DNA from: Armatimonadetes bacterium JP3_11
GTDB lineage: Bacteria; Armatimonadota; Fimbriimonadia; Fimbriimonadales; GBS-DC
Assembly (NCBI GenBank): GCA_002254605.1
Contig: NKPV01000003.1
Location: forward strand, 1 to 54,680
Direction: 5' to 3'
Length of the DNA: 54,680 nucleotides
Each line of letters begins with the position of its first letter. The first letter of the stretch is position 1. Both the position numbers and the translations under genes were made by a program. Below are positions 1,874 through 45,558 of this stretch, in pieces. The notes under the pieces are model-generated. The model had not been told where the DNA came from, did not search any database, and saw only the letters and a program-made list of their open reading frames with translations.

Positions 1874-3517
1874 TCAGACTTCTGTCACCACGACCACGAT
1901 CATCGGGCGTCGGCTGAGGTGCTTACGGCAGAAACGGCGCAGCACCATTGTCAGCTCTTCGCGAATATTATCCCAATCGCTGATCTCGGCGGGCGCCATC
2001 TTGCCCAGTGTCTCTTGCACTGCTATGCGCGCCAGTTCGGGCTGGATTTCGTTTTGCCATTCAAAACCGCGCAGAATGAATTGGGGGTCATCGACGAGGT
2101 CGCCTGTCTGAGCGCGCACGGTAATCAGGGCGACCATGATGCCTTCCTGGGCGATGTGGCGTCGGTCGCGGATAATCGCTTCTGGCACGCCGCCTTCCAC
2201 GCCTTCTTCGATGAGTAGTCTGCCTGCGGGCACTTTCTCCTCCAAAGTGGCGGCGCCGTTTTCGATACGCAACACACTCCCGTTCTCCAGCAGGAACATC
2301 TGCTCCTCGCGATAGCCCATTTGTCGCGCCAGTTCGAAGTACGCGGCTTGATGACGGGGCTCACCGTGCACCGGCGCAAGGTAGCGCGGCTTGAGCAAGC
2401 TAATCATGAGCTTCAGCTCTTCCTGACTGGCATGCCCCGATACATGCACAGGCGCAATCTCGTCGTGATAGACCTTTGCGCCTAAGCGCACAAGGCGGTT
2501 CACCGTGCGCCAGACCAGGCTCTCGTTGCCGGGAATGGGCGTAGCAGATAAAATGACGGTGTCGCCGGGGGTGATTTTCAGGCGGGGGTACTCGTCCGCG
2601 GCGATTTGGCTAAGCGCGGAGAGCGGCTCGCCCTGACTGCCTGTCGTCAGCACCAGTATCTGCTCTGGGGGATAGTCATCAATCTGCTTTGCGCTAATCA
2701 TCACGCTCGGCTCAATGCACAGATAGCCCTGCTGGTGGGCAATCTCCACATTCTGCTCCATCCGCCTCCCCAGCACCGCGACCTTGCGCCCATAGAGCTG
2801 CGCCATATTAATCGCCTGCTGCAAACGATGGATATTAGAAGCGAAAGTGGTAATCAGGATACGCCCCTGCGCGTTGGCGAACAGCGTGTAGTAGGCGTCG
2901 CTGACAGTGCTTTCGGAGGGTGTCCAGCCGCTCCGCTCCGCGTTGGTGCAGTCGCTAAGCAGTAGCAGTACGCCCTCGTCGCCCAGCCGCGCCAGGTGAT
3001 TGAAATCGGTGCGCACACCGTCGACGGGGGTATGGTCAAACTTGAAATCGCCTGTGAAGACCACGATGCCCTCGGGGGTGCGCAGCGCATAGCCCACGCA
3101 GTCGGGGATGCTATGCGTCACGCGAATCGGTTCCACAGTCAAATCGCCCACCGTGAACGGCGTTGGGGGCTTGATGGGGCGTAGGTCGGCGTTTAGGCGT
3201 CGCTCGCGCAACTTATGCTCAATCAGCGCCAGCGTGAGCGGCGTGCCATAAATCGGCAGGTTGCCCAAGCGCGGTAAAATGTAAGGCAGCGCGCCTACAT
3301 GGTCTTCGTGCCCGTGCGTCAGCAGAATGCCCTGCACCTCGTCGCAAATGCTCCACAGATACTCTGGATCGGGAATCACTAAGTCCACGCCAGGCAAATC
3401 CTCGCCTGGAAACGAGATGCCACAATCGATGATGACTGCTTGATTATCCCAGCGTACTAAGTTGAGGTTTTTACCGATTTCGCCACTGCCGCCAAGCGGG
3501 ATGATTTCGATTGCCAA
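1874..3517 (-). CDS. rnj: Ribonuclease J
   Basis: IIPLGGSGEIGKN, THGHEDHVG metallo-beta-lactamase motif, TGDFK, GSQGEP, HVSGHA, PVHGE. Start placed at TTG 3517 after AAGGAGG instead of the track start 3610. Confidence 0.95.
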   Translation of the reverse strand: MAIEIIPLGGSGEIGKNLNLVRWDNQAVIIDCGISFPGEDLPGVDLVIPDPEYLWSICDEVQGILLTHGHEDHVGALPYILPRLGNLPIYGTPLTLALIEHKLRERRLNADLRPIKPPTPFTVGDLTVEPIRVTHSIPDCVGYALRTPEGIVVFTGDFKFDHTPVDGVRTDFNHLARLGDEGVLLLLSDCTNAERSGWTPSESTVSDAYYTLFANAQGRILITTFASNIHRLQQAINMAQLYGRKVAVLGRRMEQNVEIAHQQGYLCIEPSVMISAKQIDDYPPEQILVLTTGSQGEPLSALSQIAADEYPRLKITPGDTVILSATPIPGNESLVWRTVNRLVRLGAKVYHDEIAPVHVSGHASQEELKLMISLLKPRYLAPVHGEPRHQAAYFELARQMGYREEQMFLLENGSVLRIENGAATLEEKVPAGRLLIEEGVEGGVPEAIIRDRRHIAQEGIMVALITVRAQTGDLVDDPQFILRGFEWQNEIQPELARIAVQETLGKMAPAEISDWDNIREELTMVLRRFCRKHLSRRPMIVVVVTEV

Positions 3518-3692
3518 CGGTGATAGCCTCCTTACCCAAACAAATATAGTATAGCATGCGAGGATACTCCTTCTGTCGTGTTGTCCGCTTCGCCGCGCCC
3601 AACGCTGCAAACGCCCTCAGTGCCGCCCGCTTAGACTCGCCGACAACAGCCGCTTAACTTCGCTTTTACCTTGAATCGTGTATTATCTGGGC

Positions 3693-5255
3693 ATGCGTAT
3701 TCTATCTTGGCGTTTTGGGTTTGCAGGGCTGTTGTTGAGTTTTGCCTTGAGCGCGTTGGCGCAACAGTTCGCGACGGGTGTCGTGTTCCATGACCGCAAT
3801 CGCAACGGTATCCGCGACGCAGGCGAGCCGGGCGTGCCCAATGTGTTAGTCTCCAATCAGCGCGAGGTCGTCAAAACCGACGGGCAAGGACGCTATCGCC
3901 TCCCAGTGGACGATGATACTATCCTCTTCGTGGTCAAGCCGCGCGGATGGAGGACACCGCTTTCGGAGAGAAATGTACCCCGTTTCTACTATATTCATAA
4001 GCCGAGCGGCTCTTTCCCCGTGCGTTTTGGCGGCGTCGCGCCGACGGGGGCGTTGCCCGCTTCGGTAGATTTTCCGCTCTACCCCCAGCGCGAGGCGGAA
4101 CGCCACACGGCGCTGATATTCGGCGACACGCAGCCACGCGATATGACGGAGGTGTTCTACATCGGGCGTGATGTAGTGCGCGAGCTGATCGGAACGAAGC
4201 AGGCAGCGTTCGGAGTCGTGTTGGGCGATGTGCTGTTTGACGACCTGAGCCTGTTCCCCGCTATTACCCAGATGATGGGGCAAATAGGCATCCCGATCTA
4301 CTATGTGCTGGGCAATCATGACCTCAACTTCGACTCGCCCGACGACCAGCACAGCGACGAGACTTGGCATCGCCACTTCGGACCGAACTACTACGCCTTC
4401 CAGTACGGTCGCACGCACTACATCGTGCTGGATGATGTGGTCTGGACTGGCGCCCAGGGCGAGCAGCGGGGGCGCTATGCGGCGGGCTTGGGCGAGCGGC
4501 AGATAGAGTTCCTCCGCAACTACCTTCGCTATGTGAACCGCAACGATTTCATCGTACTGCTGATGCATATCCCGATGTGGGAGTGGCCCGATTCGGAGCG
4601 TCGGCAGGTGTTTGCGATGCTTGCGCCGTTTCCGAACACGCTCTCGTTTTCAGCACATACTCATGTGCAACAGCATCGCTTTTTCGGTGCGGATGCAGGC
4701 TGGAACGGACGCTCGCCCCATCACCACATCAATACAGTTACGGTGTGCGGTAGCTGGTGGACAGGCGCACCTGACCCTGTCGGCATCCCCCACACCACCA
4801 TGCGCGACGGTACGCCGAACGGCTACCTGTGGCTGGATGTGAACCGCAATCGGTATCGCGTGCGGTATCAGGCGGCGCGCCGTCCGCCCAACTACCAGAT
4901 GCACATCTACACGCCGGATTCGGTCGATCACGCCAAGACGGGGGAAACGCCCGTGTTGGTGAACTACTTCTTTGGCTCGGAGTTCTGCACCGTGCAGATG
5001 CGTGTGAACGGCGGGGCTTGGATACGCATGCAGCAGGTGCAGGATACACCCGACCCCGCCTACGCGACACTGAAGCAACAAGAGCGGGAGTTTAAGCTGC
5101 CGGGACGCCCGCTTCCCAGTGTGAGCCCAGCGGTGCATCTCTGGAGGGCGAACCTACCGCCAGGACTCCCGCGTGGGTTCCACCAAATCGAGGTGCAGGT
5201 GCGCAACCTCTTCGGTGATGAGTTCACCGATAGGTGCATTATTCAGGTGCGCTGA
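3693..5255 (+). CDS. Secreted calcineurin-like metallophosphoesterase with N- and C-terminal accessory domains
   Basis: Signal peptide (ALA-Q); GVVFHDRNRNGIRDAGEPG N-domain; motifs GDTQ, LGD, GNHD, MHIP, AHTH. ATG 3693 preferred. Confidence 0.85.
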   Translation: MRILSWRFGFAGLLLSFALSALAQQFATGVVFHDRNRNGIRDAGEPGVPNVLVSNQREVVKTDGQGRYRLPVDDDTILFVVKPRGWRTPLSERNVPRFYYIHKPSGSFPVRFGGVAPTGALPASVDFPLYPQREAERHTALIFGDTQPRDMTEVFYIGRDVVRELIGTKQAAFGVVLGDVLFDDLSLFPAITQMMGQIGIPIYYVLGNHDLNFDSPDDQHSDETWHRHFGPNYYAFQYGRTHYIVLDDVVWTGAQGEQRGRYAAGLGERQIEFLRNYLRYVNRNDFIVLLMHIPMWEWPDSERRQVFAMLAPFPNTLSFSAHTHVQQHRFFGADAGWNGRSPHHHINTVTVCGSWWTGAPDPVGIPHTTMRDGTPNGYLWLDVNRNRYRVRYQAARRPPNYQMHIYTPDSVDHAKTGETPVLVNYFFGSEFCTVQMRVNGGAWIRMQQVQDTPDPAYATLKQQEREFKLPGRPLPSVSPAVHLWRANLPPGLPRGFHQIEVQVRNLFGDEFTDRCIIQVR

Positions 5256-13838: not shown

Positions 13839-15274
13839 TACTGACCACCTCCTTGCGGGGCGGGTGCGGTGGGCTTGCTCTTATGGGTGTGTGCGCCGCC
13901 GTGCCCGTTATGCCCGTGATAGAGTTTGTACCAGAGCTCCTTCAACTCCGCCACCGCCAACATCGGGATAAATCGCGCGAACACGAACATCATCATAATG
14001 AAAAAGCCGATTGTGCCCAGATAGAGCCACCAGTCGTTAATCGTGGGAGTGTACATGCCCCACGCCGACGGGGTGAAGTCACGATGCAGGCTCATCACCA
14101 CAATCACGAACCGCTCGAACCACATCCCGATGTTCACGATAATCGAGATGATGAACAGCGCCAGCAAGTTCTGCCGAATCTTAGGCGACCAGAGCAGTTG
14201 GGGCACGATGCCATTGCAGAAAATCAGCGCCCAGTACGCCGCCCAGTACGGACCGAAGAATCGGTTCACCACCAAGAACTGCTCGAACTGGTTGCCACTG
14301 TACCAGCCGAAGAACATCTCGCACAGGTAGCCGTAGAACACTATCCAGCCCGTGGCGAGCATCACCTTTGCCATCCAGTCGATGTGGTTCATGGTGATGT
14401 AGTCTTGCAGTTTAGGATACAGGATGCGGAACGGGATGACGAGGGTGAGCACCATCGCGAACCCCGAGAAGATGGCGCCTGCGACAAAGTAAGGTGGGAA
14501 GATGGTGACATGCCAGCCTGGTACGATAGAAATCGCGAAGTCTAACGACACGATGGAGTGTACCGACAGTACCAGGGGTGTGGACAGCCCTGCCAGCAAC
14601 AGGTACGCCTGCTCCCAGCGCAGCCAGTGGATGGCGGAGTTGCGCCACCCCAGTGCAAAGATACCGTTCAGCACACGGGAAATTTGGCTCTTGGCGCGGT
14701 CGCGCATCTTCGCCAAGTCGGGGATCAGCCCCATGTACCAGAACAGCACGGAAACCGTGAAGTAGGTGGACACCGCCCACACATCCCACTCCAGCGGGCT
14801 GCGGAACTGGGGCCACATCGCCAGCCAGTTGGGGATGGGGAACAGCCAGTACGCCACCCAGGGTCGCCCCGTGTGGAACAGCGGGAAGATGCCTGCGCAC
14901 ATCACGGCGAAAATCGTCATCGCTTCCGCGAACCGGTTGATAGACATGCGCCAGGCTTGTCGCAGCAGGAGCAAAATCGCGGAGATGAGCGTCCCCGCGT
15001 GCCCAATACCGATCCACCAAACGAAGTTGATGATGGCGAATCCCCATGCGACGGGCTGATTGATGCCCCAGATTCCTAAGCCTACAGCTACCAGATACAC
15101 GAGCGCCATCAGCAACGCGAACGCGCCGATCAGCCCCAGCCCGAACATAATCGTCCACGCCATCGGGTGGCGCTCCATCGGGATGCTGGTAATCTGATCC
15201 GTGATGCGCTCGTAGGTCTGCTGCCCCTCAAATAGAGGGAACTCCTTGATTTCTGCCTTAATGGTCTGTTGCAT
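13838..15274 (-). CDS. actC: Alternative complex III quinol-binding subunit ActC (NrfD family)
   Basis: NFVWWIGIGHAGTLISAIL, HTGRPW, QFRSPLEWD, VLSVHSIVSLDFA, GMWFERF. Confidence 0.93.
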   Translation of the reverse strand: MQQTIKAEIKEFPLFEGQQTYERITDQITSIPMERHPMAWTIMFGLGLIGAFALLMALVYLVAVGLGIWGINQPVAWGFAIINFVWWIGIGHAGTLISAILLLLRQAWRMSINRFAEAMTIFAVMCAGIFPLFHTGRPWVAYWLFPIPNWLAMWPQFRSPLEWDVWAVSTYFTVSVLFWYMGLIPDLAKMRDRAKSQISRVLNGIFALGWRNSAIHWLRWEQAYLLLAGLSTPLVLSVHSIVSLDFAISIVPGWHVTIFPPYFVAGAIFSGFAMVLTLVIPFRILYPKLQDYITMNHIDWMAKVMLATGWIVFYGYLCEMFFGWYSGNQFEQFLVVNRFFGPYWAAYWALIFCNGIVPQLLWSPKIRQNLLALFIISIIVNIGMWFERFVIVVMSLHRDFTPSAWGMYTPTINDWWLYLGTIGFFIMMMFVFARFIPMLAVAELKELWYKLYHGHNGHGGAHTHKSKPTAPAPQGGGQ

Positions 15275-30633: not shown

Positions 30634-31551
30634 ATGAAAATCGTGATTGCTGGCGGCACAGGTTTTATTGGCAAAGCGATGGTGCGGGCATGGGCTCCGG
30701 AACATCATCTGGTGATACTCACGCGCGCTCCTGAACGCGCCCAGCCCCAGTTGCCTGCAGGCGTGCGTGCCCTTGGCTGGGACGGCGAAACATTGGGCGA
30801 CTGGGTACAACAGTTGGAAGGCGCAGGCGCGCTGATTAACTTGGCAGGCGAGTCCATCGCCCAGCGCTGGACGCCCGCGGTGAAACAGCGGCTTTGGGAT
30901 AGTCGGGTGAAGACCACCGCGCTGTTGACGCAGGCGGTTCAGCAGTTGCAATCGCCTCCGCGCGTGATGTTGCAGGCGTCGGCAATTGGCATTTACGACC
31001 AAAATCCCAGAACGACCTGCGACGAGTCGTGCCCACCGGGTTCAGGATTTTTAGCCGAGTTAGGTAAGGCGTGGGAATCCGCCGCGCAGCCTGTGCAAGA
31101 GCGGGGCGTGCGATTGTGCCTAATGCGTTTCGGTGTCGTGTTGGGCGAGGGCGGCGGCGCGTTGGAACGCATGCTGACCCCCTTCAAACTCGGCATGGGC
31201 GGTCCGCTGGGATCAGGTCAACAGTGGCTCTCATGGGTTCACATTGAGGATGTGGTGGGCGCAGCAGCATTCCTGATGGAACGCGACGACCTGTCCGGCG
31301 CGTTCAACTTCACCGCCCCGAACCCCGTCACGATGAATGAATTCGCCAAGACGCTGGGCAAGGTGCTGTTGCGCCCCTCGTTCGTGCGTGCGCCTGCGTT
31401 CGCACTGCGCTTGGTGCTGGGCGAAGGCGCTGATGCGCTACTGCAGGGGTCGCGCGTGTTGCCCAAGCGACTGCTCGAGGCAGGCTACGAATTCCTGTAC
31501 CCCCATCTGGAGGATGCACTGCGCCGTCTGCTTGCATCTAACCACGCCTAA
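30634..31551 (+). CDS. TIGR01777 family NAD-dependent epimerase/oxidoreductase
   Basis: MKIVIAGGTGFIG, INLAGESI, ASAIGIY, GGPLGSGQQWLSWVHIED, FNFTAPNPV. ATG 30634. Confidence 0.9.
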   Translation: MKIVIAGGTGFIGKAMVRAWAPEHHLVILTRAPERAQPQLPAGVRALGWDGETLGDWVQQLEGAGALINLAGESIAQRWTPAVKQRLWDSRVKTTALLTQAVQQLQSPPRVMLQASAIGIYDQNPRTTCDESCPPGSGFLAELGKAWESAAQPVQERGVRLCLMRFGVVLGEGGGALERMLTPFKLGMGGPLGSGQQWLSWVHIEDVVGAAAFLMERDDLSGAFNFTAPNPVTMNEFAKTLGKVLLRPSFVRAPAFALRLVLGEGADALLQGSRVLPKRLLEAGYEFLYPHLEDALRRLLASNHA

Positions 31552-32547: not shown

Positions 32548-34488
32548 ATGTTGAGTAAGAATGCACGCACTTTTTTGACCGTCGTGGGGTTTGTGTTGGT
32601 GCTGCTGCTCCTGATGCAATACCTGCGTCATTTGCAGCCGATGGGCGCACGGGAGTTGACCTACACCGACCTCGTGAATGCGGTGCAGCAGCGCACAATC
32701 GCCGAAGCGACCGTACAAGGGAATCGGCTCGTGGGGACGCTGAAGGACGGTGCCGCGTTCCATGCAGCCCTGCCCCCGGAAGGCTCCGCACGCGACACGC
32801 TCTATAAACAGATGACCGAAGCGGGAATCCGCCTTAAGTTCACTGAAGACAGCCGCGTGCCCGACTACCTGAGCCAGATGCTGGGCACATTTTTGGTGAT
32901 CTTACTAATTGGAGGGCTGTTCTGGTTCCTCCTGATGCGGTCGGCGCAGGCGGGGAACAATCAGGCGTTCTCGTTCGGCAAAGCGCGCGCCCGCCGCTAC
33001 AACGAGAGCATTCCGCGCGTGACCTTCGACGATGTCGCCGGCGTAGAGGAAGCAAAACAGGAACTGGCGGAAATCGTAGACTATCTCAAGAACACGCAGA
33101 AATATCAGAAACTCGGGGCAAAAATCCCCAAGGGTGTCCTGTTGCTGGGACCGCCGGGCTGTGGCAAGACGCTGCTGGCGCGCGCCGTCGCAGGGGAAGC
33201 CGGCGTGCCGTTCTTCCATATCAGCGGCTCCGATTTCGTGGAGATGTTTGTCGGCGTCGGCGCTGCACGCGTGCGCGACCTGTTTGAGACCGCCAAAGCG
33301 AACCGTCCCGCCCTGATTTTCATCGATGAAATCGACGCCGTCGGACGCCAGCGCGGCACCGGGCTTGGCGGCGGACACGATGAACGCGAACAGACCCTCA
33401 ACCAACTCCTTGTCGAAATGGACGGCTTTGACCCCAATCTGGGGATCATCGTTATCGCCGCCACGAACCGCGCCGACATTTTAGACCCTGCGCTGCTGCG
33501 TCCCGGACGCTTCGACCGCCATATTGTCGTCGACCCACCCGATGTGGAGGGGCGCAAAAAGATTCTGGAAGTCCATACCAAAGGTAAGCCGCTTGCGCCC
33601 GATGTCGACCTGGAGGTGCTTGCCAAGCGCACCCCCGGATTCACCGGGGCGGATTTGGCAAACCTCGTGAACGAAGCGGCGCTCATCGCTGCGCGACGCA
33701 ATAAGACACGCATCAGCATGGAAGAGTTCGAGGAAGCCGTCGACCGCGTCATCGCGGGTCCTCAGCGACGCAATCGCGTGGTGGACAAGCGCGAGCGCGA
33801 GGTGGTCGCCTATCACGAGGTGGGACACGCGATTGTGGGCGAGCTTCTGCCAGAAGCTGAACCCGTGCATAAAATCTCGATCCTGCCGCGGGGGATGGCG
33901 CTCGGCTACACCATCCAGATGCCCGAACGCGACCGGTATCTCTATTCACGCCAAGCGCTGCTGGATCGTATTACCACGATGCTCGGTGGGCGCGTGGCGG
34001 AAGAAATTGTCTTCGGTGAGGTGGGCACAGGGGCGCACGATGACCTCAAACGCGCTACGGAAATCGCCCGCGCTATGGTCACCGAATACGGCATGAGCGA
34101 GAAACTCGGACCGCTCACCTTCGGCAGGCGGCACGGCAACCCCTTCCTGGGACGCGACATTATGGAAGACCGCAACTACAGCGAGCAGGTCGCCTACGAG
34201 ATTGACCAAGAGGTGCGCCGCATCATCGAGGAGTGCTATCAACGGGCGAAGGAAATCCTGACACGCCATCGCGACAAGATGGATCGCATTGTGCAGGCGT
34301 TGATGGAACGCGAGAACCTCTCGCGTGAAGAGTTTCTGGCGCTGATGCGAGATGAAGAGGGCGAAGACCCTGTGCGCACACTCGAGCCTGCCCCAACCGA
34401 GCCCCCCACGGTAGCTCCTGAAACCAGCAACGAAGAGAACACGGCGCCCACCAAACGCCTGCGCCCACGCGCCGCGCCCAGCAGCTAA
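32548..34488 (+). CDS. ftsH: ATP-dependent zinc metalloprotease FtsH
   Basis: Two TM segments, Walker [37 protein letters not shown]; GGAGG RBS. Confidence 0.96.
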
Positions 34489-34489
34489 C

Positions 34490-34558
34490 ATGCGCCCCAG
34501 GGGGAGGGACACCTGGGGCGCATCGGAGAGGGAGGGACAAGATGCTATGACCGCACAC
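34490..34558 (-). ncRNA. Candidate sigma54-dependent small RNA with two UGUCCCUCCC motifs
   Basis: Lies downstream of the sigma54 element at 34569-34584; 12-bp stem atgcgccccagg/cctggggcgcat with a 10-nt loop; the loop sequence is repeated at 34530-34539; no credible ORF. Boundaries inferred. Confidence 0.45.
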
Positions 34559-34568
34559 TATGGGGTGT

Positions 34569-34584
34569 AGCAACTTTCGTGCCA
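34569..34584 (-). promoter_or_regulatory. Sigma54 (-24/-12) promoter
   Basis: TGGCACGAAAGTTGCT matches the TGGCACG-N4-TTGCW consensus exactly. Confidence 0.75.
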
Positions 34585-34622
34585 TTCAATCCACTCCATG
34601 CTATAATTGAGTGGAGGTTAAT

Positions 34623-35408
34623 ATGCCGTTAGAGTTTCGTAGCCGTGAGGACGAGGGGTTCTCGATCCGCCGATTCCTGAAAACTTTCGGTGCGGGCGTC
34701 GCTGTGTTTCTGATCTTCATGGCGATAGGCTACTACCTGATTGGTCCGCGCATCACGGTCTCGGAAGAGGGGCAACTTCGGCTACGCTTCGCCGCACACT
34801 CCAGAGGCGATTCCGTAGCACCACCCGATGCTAACGCTGCAAAGCCGATGCCCAAAGTCGAAGTTTACGAAAAGCTCGCACCCGATGTCACGGCAGGGAC
34901 AAGCGCAATCATCGGCTCGCGTGAGGTCGCACCGTTCGATTACGAACAGTATCAACAGAAACGACGCGAGCGAAAACCGAAGCCGCCCGCGACAATCCCA
35001 CCGCAAGCAGATGCGACGCCAACCGCAACGGACGACGACTATTTTGTACCTGATACCCCACCCGACGAGCCAGTTTCTCCACCGATGGAGCCTGCCCCCA
35101 CCCCAACCGAGCCCCCCACGACCGAGCCTACACCACAGCCACCAACGCAGACAGAAACAACAACACCTCAGCAAAACGCGCTCTATCGGGTACAGGTGGG
35201 AGTCTACGAGAACCGCGAAAATGCCAATCTGACAGCCCAAGAGTTGCGCAGCCGCGGCTTTGAAGCGAGCATCGTGCCCTTTCAACGCGACGGCAAAACG
35301 CTCTATCGCGTGCAGGTACTCGTGACACGCGATAGAGCGAAAGCCGACATGCTCAAGTCGCAGTTAGAAAGCAAAGGCTTCCCCGCAACGATTTTAAACG
35401 CGCAATAG
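34623..35408 (+). CDS. SPOR-domain protein (single TM, Pro/Thr-rich linker, C-terminal SPOR)
   Basis: TM segment near the N-terminus; LYRVQVGVYENRENA and LYRVQV repeats. ATG 34623 after GGAGG, with TATAAT at 34602-34607. Confidence 0.88.
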   Translation: MPLEFRSREDEGFSIRRFLKTFGAGVAVFLIFMAIGYYLIGPRITVSEEGQLRLRFAAHSRGDSVAPPDANAAKPMPKVEVYEKLAPDVTAGTSAIIGSREVAPFDYEQYQQKRRERKPKPPATIPPQADATPTATDDDYFVPDTPPDEPVSPPMEPAPTPTEPPTTEPTPQPPTQTETTTPQQNALYRVQVGVYENRENANLTAQELRSRGFEASIVPFQRDGKTLYRVQVLVTRDRAKADMLKSQLESKGFPATILNAQ

Positions 35409-35410
35409 CG

Positions 35411-36316
35411 CTATTTCTCTGCGCAATGTTCGCGCGCAAGCGCACGCAGCTTCGCGAGCGCTTGCTTTTCTAATTGACGCGTGCGCTCACGCGAGAGACG
35501 CTTGACATGACCCGGCGGAATTTCGTTCACATCCAGCCCCAAATGACGATAAATCGCCCATCGCTCGCTCGGGGTGAGATGTTTCTCGATAATATCGAAG
35601 ATTTCCGAAACCCACACGCGCTCCACTGCAACGGCTTCGGGGTCGGCTTCTTCGGGACTGGTTAGCAATCCCCCAAGAGGGGTACTCTGATCATCGCGTG
35701 CTTTATACTCGAGAGAATAGTTCGCACGGGCGTAACGCGATAATCTAATTACCTTGCTAACTGGCATCTCCAAATGCGCAGCAATCTCTTCCTCGGTCGG
35801 CTCCCTACCGAGTGTTGCCCGCAGCTCGTTGCGCGTGCGTTCAATCTTACGCAAGGAGTCGACAGCGTGATTAGGTAGGCGAATCATGTTCATATGAGCG
35901 TCCGCAGCACGTCCTACGCTCTGCCGAATCCAGTGAACCGCGTAGGTGCTGAAACGCAGACCCCGACTCAGATCAAAGTTGCGTATCGCTTTGACCAATC
36001 CGATAGCACCTTCCTGCACGAGGTCTTCCAGCGGTAATCCGGGGCGAACATATCGACGCGCGACGCTAATCACGAGGCGCAGGTTCGACTCGATGAGGCG
36101 GTTCTGGGCGTCTTCATCGCCTGCCTGCGCGCGGTGGAGCAGCTCCAACTCCTCCTCAGGCTGTAAAAGCGGGCGGCGCAATAACTCGCCCCAAATCGAG
36201 TCCAGAGCAGTACCACGCAAGCTCTGCTCGGCTTCAGGCTCCAATTCAGGCGCCTCGTTGCCCCAGCACTCCATTTCAGCTGCTTCCATATAATCTGGAA
36301 CGGAATACATTCTCAC
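35411..36316 (-). CDS. Alternative sigma70-family sigma factor (RpoD/RpoS-like, no region 1.1)
   Basis: LLQPEEE, NLRLVISVARRY, DLVQEGAIGL, FSTYAVHWIRQ, IRLP, LGREPTEEEIA, SRERTRQLE. Confidence 0.9.
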   Translation of the reverse strand: MRMYSVPDYMEAAEMECWGNEAPELEPEAEQSLRGTALDSIWGELLRRPLLQPEEELELLHRAQAGDEDAQNRLIESNLRLVISVARRYVRPGLPLEDLVQEGAIGLVKAIRNFDLSRGLRFSTYAVHWIRQSVGRAADAHMNMIRLPNHAVDSLRKIERTRNELRATLGREPTEEEIAAHLEMPVSKVIRLSRYARANYSLEYKARDDQSTPLGGLLTSPEEADPEAVAVERVWVSEIFDIIEKHLTPSERWAIYRHLGLDVNEIPPGHVKRLSRERTRQLEKQALAKLRALAREHCAEK

Positions 36317-36350
36317 GAATACCCCCGCTGCGTGTTGCTATCATCAATAC

Positions 36351-36366
36351 AGCAACTTTCGTGCCA
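36351..36366 (-). promoter_or_regulatory. Sigma54 (-24/-12) promoter of the sigma factor gene
   Basis: TGGCACGAAAGTTGCT, about 35 nt upstream of the GTG; identical to 34569-34584. Confidence 0.8.
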
Positions 36367-36427
36367 AATGATTCGTTGGAGATTCGCGAGGCGGTTTCGG
36401 TGGGGGGAAATGGCTCCAGTGTGGCGC

Positions 36428-36504
36428 TGGTCGGGGCGGGCAGATTCGAACTGCCGACCTCTCCCACCCGAAAGGAGCGCTCTACCATGCTGAGCTACGC
36501 CCCG
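36428..36504 (-). tRNA. tRNA-Pro (anticodon CGG)
   Basis: CGGGGCG acceptor stem, GCTC/GAGC D-arm, CTCCT-TTCGGGT-GGGAG anticodon arm, GGCAG-TTCGAAT-CTGCC T-arm, encoded CCA. Confidence 0.96.
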
Positions 36505-36515
36505 ACCTGATTTGA

Positions 36516-36545
36516 ATTGTACCCCATCGCGCGCTCAGGCGTCAA
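36516..36545 (-). promoter_or_regulatory. Sigma70-type promoter of tRNA-Pro
   Basis: TTGACG-18 nt-TACAAT immediately upstream of the tRNA. Confidence 0.7.
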
Positions 36546-36653
36546 GGGGGGCGGAAGGCGTTCAAAAACTCGCCTTATGGCGCGAGAGCAGCCCCCTCTC
36601 CCACGAGGTTCTGTGCCCACGCAGTCCTTCCTGCAACGGGTATAACTGCCCCG

Positions 36654-44658: not shown

Positions 44659-45558
44659 ATGCGTGTGTTGGTAACGGGCGCAGCGGGCTTACTGGGCGCG
44701 GAGGTCGTGGAGCGGTTCCGCGCCGCGAATCTGGAGGTGGTGGGAGCGGCTCGTCGCCCGCACGCTGCGCCTGCTGCGTCACTTGCGGAGCCGTTGTCGG
44801 GGGGCGTGGTGGCTCTTGACATCACCCAACCCGACGCCGTCCGAGCGGTCTTCGATACCTTGCGCCCCGAAGTCGTCGTCCACTGCGCCGCTATGACACA
44901 TGTGGACGCCTGCGAACACCACCCTCGAGAAGCCTATCGCGTGAACGCCTTCGGCGCAGAGGTCATCGCCTCCAACTGTCAGCGGATAGGTGCAGTGTGT
45001 GTTTATATCTCCACCGACTATGTATTCGACGGGAGCAAGCGCGCGCCATACCACGAATACGACGCTGAGAACCCCCTCAGTGTGTACGGGCGCTCCAAAT
45101 TCGCGGGTGAGCAGGCGGTGCGGACGCTCTGCCCGCGCCACTACATCGCGCGTGTGGCGTGGCTGTACGGTAAGCAGCGCAAGAGTTTCCCCCAGTTCGT
45201 GCTGGAGCAGGCGCGTGCAGGCAACTCGCCTCCCGTAATCAGCGACCAGATCGGCTCGCCCACCTATGTCGCCGATGTCGCCGACCGATTACTCCAACTC
45301 ATTCAGACCGACTGCTACGGAACCTACCACCTGACGAATACGGAGCCTGTCTCGCGCTATGAGTTTGCTTGTGCTTTGCTTCAGGCGGCAGGGTTCGCCA
45401 TCGAGCCAACTCCTGTGCCGTTTAAGCAGTGGCACACGCCAGCTCCGCGTCCTGCCTACTCTGCGCTCATCTCGTGGCGGCTGGAGTGGGCAGGCGTGGC
45501 GCCGATGCCCTCGTGGAAAGACGCCATGCAACGGTTTCTGGCGAACGTGTCGTCCTGA
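44659..45558 (+). CDS. rfbD: dTDP-4-dehydrorhamnose reductase
   Basis: VTGAAGLLG, AAMTHVDACE, ISTDYVFDG, YGRSK, DQIGSPT, APRPAYS. Confidence 0.9.
   Translation: MRVLVTGAAGLLGAEVVERFRAANLEVVGAARRPHAAPAASLAEPLSGGVVALDITQPDAVRAVFDTLRPEVVVHCAAMTHVDACEHHPREAYRVNAFGAEVIASNCQRIGAVCVYISTDYVFDGSKRAPYHEYDAENPLSVYGRSKFAGEQAVRTLCPRHYIARVAWLYGKQRKSFPQFVLEQARAGNSPPVISDQIGSPTYVADVADRLLQLIQTDCYGTYHLTNTEPVSRYEFACALLQAAGFAIEPTPVPFKQWHTPAPRPAYSALISWRLEWAGVAPMPSWKDAMQRFLANVSS

Follow-up and report, generated by a model that had tools for sequence, protein, structure and literature searches.

A predicted sigma-54-driven small RNA gene with two C-rich motifs, conserved among Fimbriimonadales

Between ftsH and the gene for a SPOR-domain protein, Armatimonadetes bacterium JP3_11 carries on the minus strand what is very probably a genuine gene for a small RNA (sRNA) driven by sigma-54. 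We identified it in a stretch of 54,680 nt (positions 1-54,680 of contig NKPV01000003.1, assembly GCA_002254605.1), which we call the window. The gene occupies a 134-nt gap whose two flanking genes both lie on the plus strand. It joins a -24/-12 promoter to a short C-rich RNA body and a terminal hairpin whose loop repeats the C-rich motif, and it represents a new, well-delimited, single-copy sRNA family of a familiar regulator type. The source assembly (G000) comprises 2.6 Mb in 359 contigs at 59% GC, and the window is its contig C237; C-numbers denote contigs of G000, labels such as G001 and G004 its relatives, and g1 to g6 the genera of its family.

Structure and conservation of the small RNA gene

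The gene is composed of the following features.

34570-34584, minus strand: sigma-54 -24/-12 promoter TGGCACGAAAGTTGC, an exact match with TGGCAC-N5-TTGC spacing
34558, minus strand: predicted transcription start (G), 12 nt past the C of the -12 GC
34484-34558, minus strand: predicted non-coding small RNA of ~69-75 nt, supported by covariance models R1 and R2
34525-34552, minus strand: single-stranded segment GGUCAUAGCAUCUUGUCCCUCCCUCUCC, which includes the linear C-rich motif at 34530-34539
34490-34523, minus strand: terminal hairpin with a 12-bp stem and the 10-nt loop UGUCCCUCCC (34502-34511), from folding and covariation

An earlier inspection of this DNA from its letters alone (the sequence-only reading) had reported a perfect sigma-54 element in this gap, on the strand opposite both flanking genes, and the sequence is as described. 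The window holds two matches to the element against 0.30 expected, a number reached by 5 of 100 shuffled sequences. The sRNA promoter differs at two positions from the 18-nt consensus of this genome, TTGGCACRAAAGTTGCTG. It was found in all 21 copies of the gene, from three genera, where it is invariant or nearly so (TGGCGC in one) and where its distance to the transcribed element is also kept. A start at 34558 is inferred from the usual sigma-54 spacing, 12 nt beyond the C of the -12 GC, and agrees with the position proposed earlier. In the genus alignment, only the stretch from -11 to +2 varies within the unit.

From 34558 the minus strand reads GUGUGCGGUCAUAGCAUCUUGUCCCUCCCUCUCCG and then enters the 12-bp hairpin (34523-34490). 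The window contains the plus-strand 10-mer GGGAGGGACA (read as UGUCCCUCCC on the minus strand) at two places only, 34502-34511 and 34530-34539. As the sequence-only reading had observed, one occurrence is linear and the other forms the whole loop of a 12-bp stem ending 1 nt from the ftsH stop codon. The cores kept in relatives are shorter than this 10-mer: in the loop CCCUCCC, retained in 20 of 21 copies, and in the linear stretch CCUCCCUCUC, retained in genera g2 and g5. Within the genus, the body GGUCAUAGCAUCUU(G/A)UCCCUCCCUCUCC is constant in 12 of 13 sequences, as are the stem and the loop core CCCUCCC; the segment at 34525-34552 is thus invariant in 12 of the 13 copies bar one G/A position.

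The hairpin folds at -28.7 kcal/mol (z -3.1), and the plus strand at -28.2 kcal/mol. Across genera its stem changes from GCGCCCCAGG/CCUGGGGCGC to GCGCUCUGGC/GCCAGAGCGC, GGGGUCCCGA/UCGGGACCCC and GGAGCCUCGG/CCGAGGCUCC, with CCCUCCC in the loop throughout. An alignment of 20 sequences, which had been fitted to the model, shows compensatory changes at 8 of 10 pairs, with 99.5% of cells paired, a result that none of 500 shuffles equalled. When the transcribed parts were aligned independently with MAFFT and folded with RNAalifold, this hairpin and no other was returned, with 6 of 9 pairs compensatory; in the consensus the 5' part with CCUCCCUCUC is unpaired and CCCUCCC sits in the loop. Model R1 matches 34482-34584 at 122 bits and model R2 at 114.9 bits.

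The unit contains no conserved open reading frame (ORF): relatives have ACG or AAG in place of the AUG at 34521-34523. We rejected a coding interpretation based on a 12-codon AUG frame in the hairpin and a 120-aa antisense frame at 34223-34585, since start-codon changes and indels leave neither conserved. A scan of the window at Rfam gathering thresholds returned tRNA only. A permissive scan of 34300-34800 gave five chance-level matches to eukaryotic families, the best at 18.2 bits against a gathering score of 70.

Promoter position, tail composition and base pairing all support the minus strand as the functional one. On average, the 9 nt on the 3' side of the hairpin hold 4.3 T when read in the minus sense versus 0.7 when read in the plus sense, with more on the minus side in each of the 21 copies; three G-U cells in the stem would become A-C on the opposite strand. 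In most relatives a U-tract directly follows the hairpin in the minus sense. The caveat, raised in the sequence-only reading, that a strong U-tract is lacking therefore holds for the copies of G000 and its closest relative G005, but not for most of the family. In these two copies most of the U-run has been lost because the ftsH stop codon abuts the stem. The hairpin is likely to serve both as an intrinsic terminator and as a second pairing seed.

By BLAST of the gap, the region is present in 12 of 16 other genomes of the genus, the four misses being 65-85% complete. At one edge conservation stops precisely at the -24 element, and at the opposite edge just past the hairpin. Searches with the covariance model recover a single copy each from 20 of 28 other family genomes: 12 of 16 in g1, 4 of 4 in both g2 and g5, 0 of 1 in g3, 0 of 2 in g4 and 0 of 1 in g6. 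Promoter, motifs and covarying hairpin are thus kept as one unit in three genera, as the sequence-only reading would predict for a real RNA gene. Among the 13 copies in g1, eight lie in the order ftsH-RNA-SPOR-sigma, three have ftsH only, one has SPOR and sigma only, and one has none of these neighbours. None of these three genes adjoins the unit in g2 or g5, where the neighbours named in one genome each are mutS and an FGGY kinase gene (g2) and genes for a lipoate ligase and an Rrf2 protein (g5). For g4, no copy was detected by the covariance model, by the promoter-plus-CCTCCC pattern in G019, or by inspecting the DNA behind TGGCAC-N5-TTGCT sites over as much as 150 nt (30 of 34 sites: those of G023 and all but the last four of G019).

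Beyond the family, two other families of the order hold four weak, plausibly related units, each combining a promoter-like site with a C/U-rich stretch and a hairpin whose loop is likewise C/U-rich. Among 150 genomes across the phylum, sampled under strict filters that may have missed weak relatives, the only match besides G000 was in G033, one of those four units. A search for the promoter-motif-motif pattern over 185,579 species recovered 16 stretches, all titled as metagenome-assembled genomes of Fimbriimonadales or Armatimonadota.

The locus is represented in RNA libraries. In four metatranscriptome runs from one study and one sample, contigs cover the ftsH, SPOR and sigma-factor genes, and three of the four runs cover 34490-34563 wholly or partly. 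One contig bridges ftsH to SPOR; others end at 34563 and 34535, and coverage is interrupted at 34536-34651 (X3) and 34483-34623 (X4), gaps and ends that are not readable as transcript ends; the end at 34563, close to the predicted start, is at most a weak hint. No contig falls at 36338-36600 in any of the four runs, which argues against bulk carry-over of DNA.

The sigma-54 regulon and its single activator

The surroundings of the sRNA gene include a second copy of its promoter.

32548-34488, plus strand: ftsH, transcribed towards the small RNA (convergent); FtsH_fam score 848.8 bits, cut-off 600
34486-34488, plus strand: ftsH stop codon, 1 nt from the stem of the small RNA hairpin
34579-34607, plus strand: sigma-70-type promoter of the SPOR gene, GTGCCA-17-TATAAT, scoring 10/12, with a TG extension
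34623-35408, plus strand: gene for the SPOR-domain protein (PF05036, 49.3 bits)
35411-36316, minus strand: gene for a sigma-70-family sigma factor, RpoS/RpoD-like, 301 aa, with Sigma70 regions 2, 3 and 4
36352-36366, minus strand: second sigma-54 promoter with the same 15-mer, 36 nt ahead of the start codon of the sigma-factor gene

The -35 hexamer of the SPOR promoter, GTGCCA, is the reverse complement of the -24 TGGCAC of the sRNA promoter, so the two divergent promoters overlap in G000. The sigma factor scores under every equivalog cut-off. Its promoter at 36352-36366 has no mismatch to the 18-nt genome consensus, and its identity with the sRNA promoter fits the co-induction of RNA and sigma factor put forward in the sequence-only reading. 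A sigma-54 promoter ahead of a sigma-70-family gene also has the form of a sigma cascade. A tRNA-Pro gene (CGG; 36428-36504, minus strand) lies just upstream of this sigma-54-driven gene.

Both rpoN and an enhancer-binding protein, presupposed by the sequence-only reading, are encoded in the genome. The rpoN frame, of 470 aa on contig C342, scores 105.7 bits. Nine matches to PF00158 (Sigma54_activat) occur in the genome, one at 246.8 bits and the rest at 33.3 bits or below, leaving a sole true enhancer-binding protein of 396 aa (contig C90, 8939-10126, minus strand). It comprises a REC domain, the Sigma54_activat AAA+ domain and AAA_lid, and has no helix-turn-helix or other DNA-binding domain. 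Its gene adjoins that of a PAS-HisKA histidine kinase, and prfA begins 19 nt after it. Against the model of the PEP-CTERM response regulator PrsR (PEP_resp_reg) the activator scores 379 bits, under the cut-off of 502.6.

Genome-wide, nine sites lie within two mismatches of the extended consensus TTGGCACRAAAGTTGCTG, and two weaker intergenic sites exist besides; the sRNA promoter is thus one of a genome-wide set. The genes behind the sites encode four PEP-CTERM proteins, a Poly_export/SLBB Wza-like protein, a REC-PilZ protein, a secreted protein and the sigma factor. By NCBIfam the Wza-like exporter is pepcterm_export-like, and a gene for a Wzc-like tyrosine autokinase comes next. Because the sole activator has no DNA-binding domain, one would expect it to work from solution at each sigma-54 promoter, and all of them probably fire together. 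The ORF-less unit at 34558 should then be induced along with the exopolysaccharide (EPS) and PEP-CTERM genes and the neighbouring sigma factor. The RNA probably belongs to a single global sigma-54 regulon rather than being the private target of a dedicated activator.

Two further sigma-54 units in this genome have no ORF. The one on C161 (promoter at 31253, minus strand; ~31115-31255) would produce an RNA of ~100 nt (GGAGAGCAAAGCCUGCCCUCAUAAGGAGG...CUUAUGAGGC) followed by a terminator hairpin, and has no Rfam match. By BLAST it is present in 27 of 28 other family genomes and 5 of 6 genera; its stem CCUCAUAAG/CUUAUGAGG becomes CCUCGC/GCGAGG in another genus, and the loop shows AAGGAGG. The unit on C160 (promoter at 14172, minus strand; ~14024-14175), facing convergent TPM/LemA genes, would give an RNA of ~115 nt ending in GGGCGGGGGAUUCCCCGCCC and a U-run; UGAGAGGAGG, immediately ahead of the terminator, is conserved. 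It is found in six genomes of the genus, G000 included. The reverse complement of its UGAGAGGAGG matches CCUCCCUCUC of the sRNA with one bulge.

Possible action, candidate targets and competing explanations

Both C-rich motifs resemble the anti-Shine-Dalgarno 3' end of 16S rRNA, and Hfq is encoded in the genome. The most likely function, judging by sequence, is translational repression through G-rich Shine-Dalgarno sites. Sigma-54 RNA polymerase would bind at 34570-34584 and be activated by the sole enhancer-binding protein, which would fire in the same step the promoters of the PEP-CTERM genes, the Wza/Wzc-type exporter, the REC-PilZ protein and the neighbouring sigma factor. Transcription would begin near 34558 and stop at the GC-rich hairpin (34523-34490). 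Two exposed copies of CCCUCCC, one in the unstructured 5' stretch and one in the terminator loop, would then pair with GGGAGGG Shine-Dalgarno sites and block translation initiation on the target mRNAs, probably with Hfq. Genes of the EPS programme would be the best candidate targets, above all that of the Wza-like exporter, which is sigma-54-driven and has the ribosome site GGGAGGGA. Taken as a whole, this account of a minus-strand, trans-acting, sigma-54-driven sRNA of ~70 nt that represses by Shine-Dalgarno pairing seems to us probable by a modest measure.

We surveyed possible targets in the ribosome-site windows of 1606 genes, called with a crude gene caller. GGAGG occurs in the windows of 633 of these genes, whereas exact complements of the motifs are rare: GGGAGGG is found in 12 and GGGAGGGA in 5. 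GGGAGGG or GAGGGAGG is present in 20 of the 1606 genes and in 2 of the 6 sigma-54-proximal genes. The 20 include the sigma-54-driven Wza-like gene, the Wzc-like gene behind it, a sigma-54-driven gene on C346, the gene for an ATPase of the PEP-CTERM system (TIGR03015-like) and rmlD (dTDP-4-dehydrorhamnose reductase, 299.2 bits; 44659-45558 of the window, plus strand), whose ribosome-site window has GGGGAGGG. At the Wza-like gene, A(C/U)GGGAGGGA is kept in 22 of 24 family orthologues, and the two without it come from g3 and g6, genera where no RNA was found. Other complementary leaders belong to a pilin-like gene (C168:28609, GGAGGGACAGAUG) and to C294:7700 (GGAGAGGGAGG). We discarded as a target C85:2115, which encodes a secreted protein of no known family and could form 11+5 bp across the Shine-Dalgarno site and AUG; this match is lost in most relatives.

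Several G-rich or C-rich sites elsewhere in the genome deserve a separate record. The sigma-54-driven gene on C346 (872-1088, minus strand), for an unknown secreted protein, has a leader of ~190 nt in which CUCCCCCUCCC stands ~55 nt upstream of the GGGAGGGA ribosome site, a possible anti-Shine-Dalgarno element in cis; the leader of its g4 homologue holds CCCUCCAUCACCCUCCCCC. On C341, a hairpin GTCCCTCCCCC/GGGGGAGGGAC (3362-3392) directly follows a PEP-CTERM protein gene (3397-4305, minus strand) and has 15 identical nt in common with the loop region of the sRNA (blastn-short E = 0.12), which may be chance or a pairing site. The unrelated genes C294:7700 and C295:18866, both on the minus strand, share an identical 18-nt ribosome-site region, GAGGGAGGAGACCCTATG; the first product is a 137-aa protein of no known family and the second is CheB.

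A number of observations weigh against this account of a sigma-54-driven sRNA that represses by Shine-Dalgarno pairing. Complementarity singles out no target: perfect matches of at least 8 nt occur in 47 of 1606 genes, and the list of duplex energies over the 1606 genes is dominated by G-rich leaders, with no functional theme at its top. The longest match that spans a start codon, that of C85:2115, is not conserved. The comparison of 2 of 6 with 20 of 1606 is post hoc and draws on small numbers and a crude gene caller. Genus g4 keeps the GGGAGGGA site of the Wza-like gene though no RNA was found there, so this gene is a candidate target only. Pairing through the two motifs gives no explanation for the invariance of the 5' part GGUCAUAGCAUCUU. 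The window copy has a poor U-tract, GUUAGCUGC, so that its transcription may continue, antisense, into ftsH; 30 nt beyond, at 34459-34443, is a second site that resembles a terminator. As assembled contigs, which give no strand, ends or level, the metatranscriptome runs establish presence in RNA libraries and nothing beyond.

A sigma-54-driven RNA could also act mainly by binding a protein through its C-rich motifs, or as a sponge or antagonist of the other ORF-less sigma-54 transcripts. That no mRNA target stands out would agree with such a role, as would the existence of the C161 and C160 units, with AAGGAGG in a covarying hairpin and with UGAGAGGAGG, complementary to CCUCCCUCUC bar one bulge, respectively. 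We nevertheless regard it as doubtful: pairing with a C161-type loop would extend over only 5-6 bp, the C160 type, in six genus genomes, is far less widespread than the sRNA, and no partner protein that binds C-rich RNA emerged. It is less probable still, and in our judgement unlikely, that the product of the promoter is an RNA antisense to the ftsH 3' end, controlling mRNA stability or termination in cis, the C-rich motifs being incidental. The hairpin does abut the ftsH stop codon, the window copy has no good U-tract, ftsH adjoins the unit in 10 of 12 other g1 copies, and the long antisense frame runs through 34223-34585. Yet the promoter, motifs and hairpin are kept where the unit lies away from ftsH (in G001, in G015 and throughout g2 and g5), a U-tract comes right after the hairpin in most relatives, and the antisense frame is broken by indels in the variable start region.

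The sequence-only reading had itself raised the possibility of a CsrA-type site on the plus strand. The hairpin would then be the terminator of ftsH, and GGGAGGGACA would supply GGA sites for CsrA in the ftsH 3' untranslated region or SPOR leader. This is consistent with an encoded csrA, five GGA triplets on the plus strand (one set of them in the loop), equal folding of that strand and the contig that runs from ftsH into SPOR. CsrA decoy RNAs normally bear many GGA hairpins; only one is present here. The conserved block ends at the minus-strand -24 element and persists without an adjacent ftsH or SPOR gene (G001, G015, g2 and g5 lack ftsH beside the unit), the T-rich tails fall on the minus-sense side in 21 of 21 copies, the G-U cells favour the minus strand, and in G001 a separate plus-strand terminator-like hairpin with a T-run precedes the element. 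With its own promoter and terminator polarity pointing the other way, the plus-strand alternative is disfavoured and very improbable, and a CsrA-sequestering RNA, for which a single hairpin and the same polarity also speak poorly, was rejected. Finally, the sigma-54 site might act as DNA, with bound holoenzyme occluding the SPOR sigma-70 promoter and the transcript as a by-product. The SPOR -35 hexamer that coincides with the -24 element, 17 nt from TATAAT, invites this idea, but longer spacers abolish the overlap in G010, G012 and G008, SPOR is not beside the unit in G004, G009, G016, G001, g2 or g5, and the invariant transcript body and covarying hairpin would be left without explanation; we find it scarcely credible. 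The sequence-only interpretation of a sigma-54-driven sRNA with anti-Shine-Dalgarno-like motifs is thus largely supported.

Relation to known systems and significance

Sigma-54-dependent sRNAs known from other bacteria include Qrr1-5 (LuxO), GlmY (GlrR), CrcZ (CbrB) and NrsZ (NtrC). Dv_sRNA2 of Desulfovibrio vulgaris is given as a target of the response regulator DVU0679 by Rajeev et al. (2011, PMC3333781). The gene described here resembles all of these in its ORF-less unit, its -24/-12 promoter, a two-component NtrC-type activator and a short RNA with its own terminator. It differs in matching no Rfam family, in its phylum, Armatimonadota, and in its presumed dependence on the genome's sole activator, which has no DNA-binding domain. 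Membership in Qrr, GlmY, CrcZ or other sRNA families of Rfam was rejected, as no match reached a gathering score.

Gram-positive sRNAs with C-rich seeds (RsaE/RoxS, the UCCC loops of RNAIII and the actinobacterial 6C RNA) are thought to block initiation by pairing with G-rich ribosome-binding sites. Our RNA shares with them its exposed C-rich motifs; it has no Rfam homology to them, its promoter type and taxon are different, and the mechanism proposed for it is inferred. The cuckoo RNAs (RSs0680/CcsR, SmelC397) of Alphaproteobacteria have two to four adjacent hairpins, each with an CCUCCUCCC loop that is the sole strongly conserved sequence while the stems drift by compensatory change, according to Reinkensmeier and Giegerich (2015, PMC4615179). 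Here, too, a C/U-rich, anti-Shine-Dalgarno-like loop stays constant amid compensatory stem changes. The motif, however, is CCCUCCC, present once in a loop and once single-stranded; there is one hairpin and a sigma-54 promoter, and the distribution is confined to Fimbriimonadales. Membership in the cuckoo family is ruled out by motif, hairpin number, taxon and Rfam.

The regulon to which the RNA would belong has a counterpart of its own. For the PrsK/PrsR/PrsT system, Haft et al. (2006, PMC1569441) describe shared upstream motifs of PEP-CTERM/exosortase genes only in Proteobacteria, with a DNA-binding PrsR. The present regulon likewise places PEP-CTERM and EPS export genes behind -24/-12 promoters under a REC-AAA+ activator, but that activator carries no helix-turn-helix domain and falls short of the PrsR cut-off, and ORF-less RNA genes are included. 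A sigma-54 activator with a REC domain and an ATPase domain and no DNA-binding domain, most similar to AtoC, is known as CtcC of Chlamydia from Soules et al. (2020, PMC7482065). The activator on C90 fits the same description; this comparison covers the activator and not the RNA. FlgR of H. pylori is probably a further activator of this type. Our literature search found no description of a regulatory RNA in Armatimonadota and nothing linking sigma-54, small RNA and PEP-CTERM.

The finding provides a conserved sRNA gene whose inducer pathway can be predicted: a single histidine kinase and a single activator. The compact regulon, centred on exopolysaccharide export and PEP-CTERM proteins, offers a testable model for a surface or biofilm switch in uncultured Fimbriimonadales of mats and hot springs, and it extends sigma-54 control of PEP-CTERM genes beyond Proteobacteria. 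As a tentative and rather speculative extension, the RNA might be the translational brake in a one-switch programme for the cell exterior. A single activator would fire all sigma-54 promoters, those of three ORF-less RNAs, a second sigma factor, the Wza/Wzc exporter and the PEP-CTERM proteins, and the RNA would pair with the unusually G-rich GGGAGGG(A) sites of EPS export and assembly genes in an incoherent feed-forward loop that may be buffered by co-induced small RNAs bearing GGAGG. If true, this would reveal an RNA layer of EPS and biofilm control in Armatimonadota.

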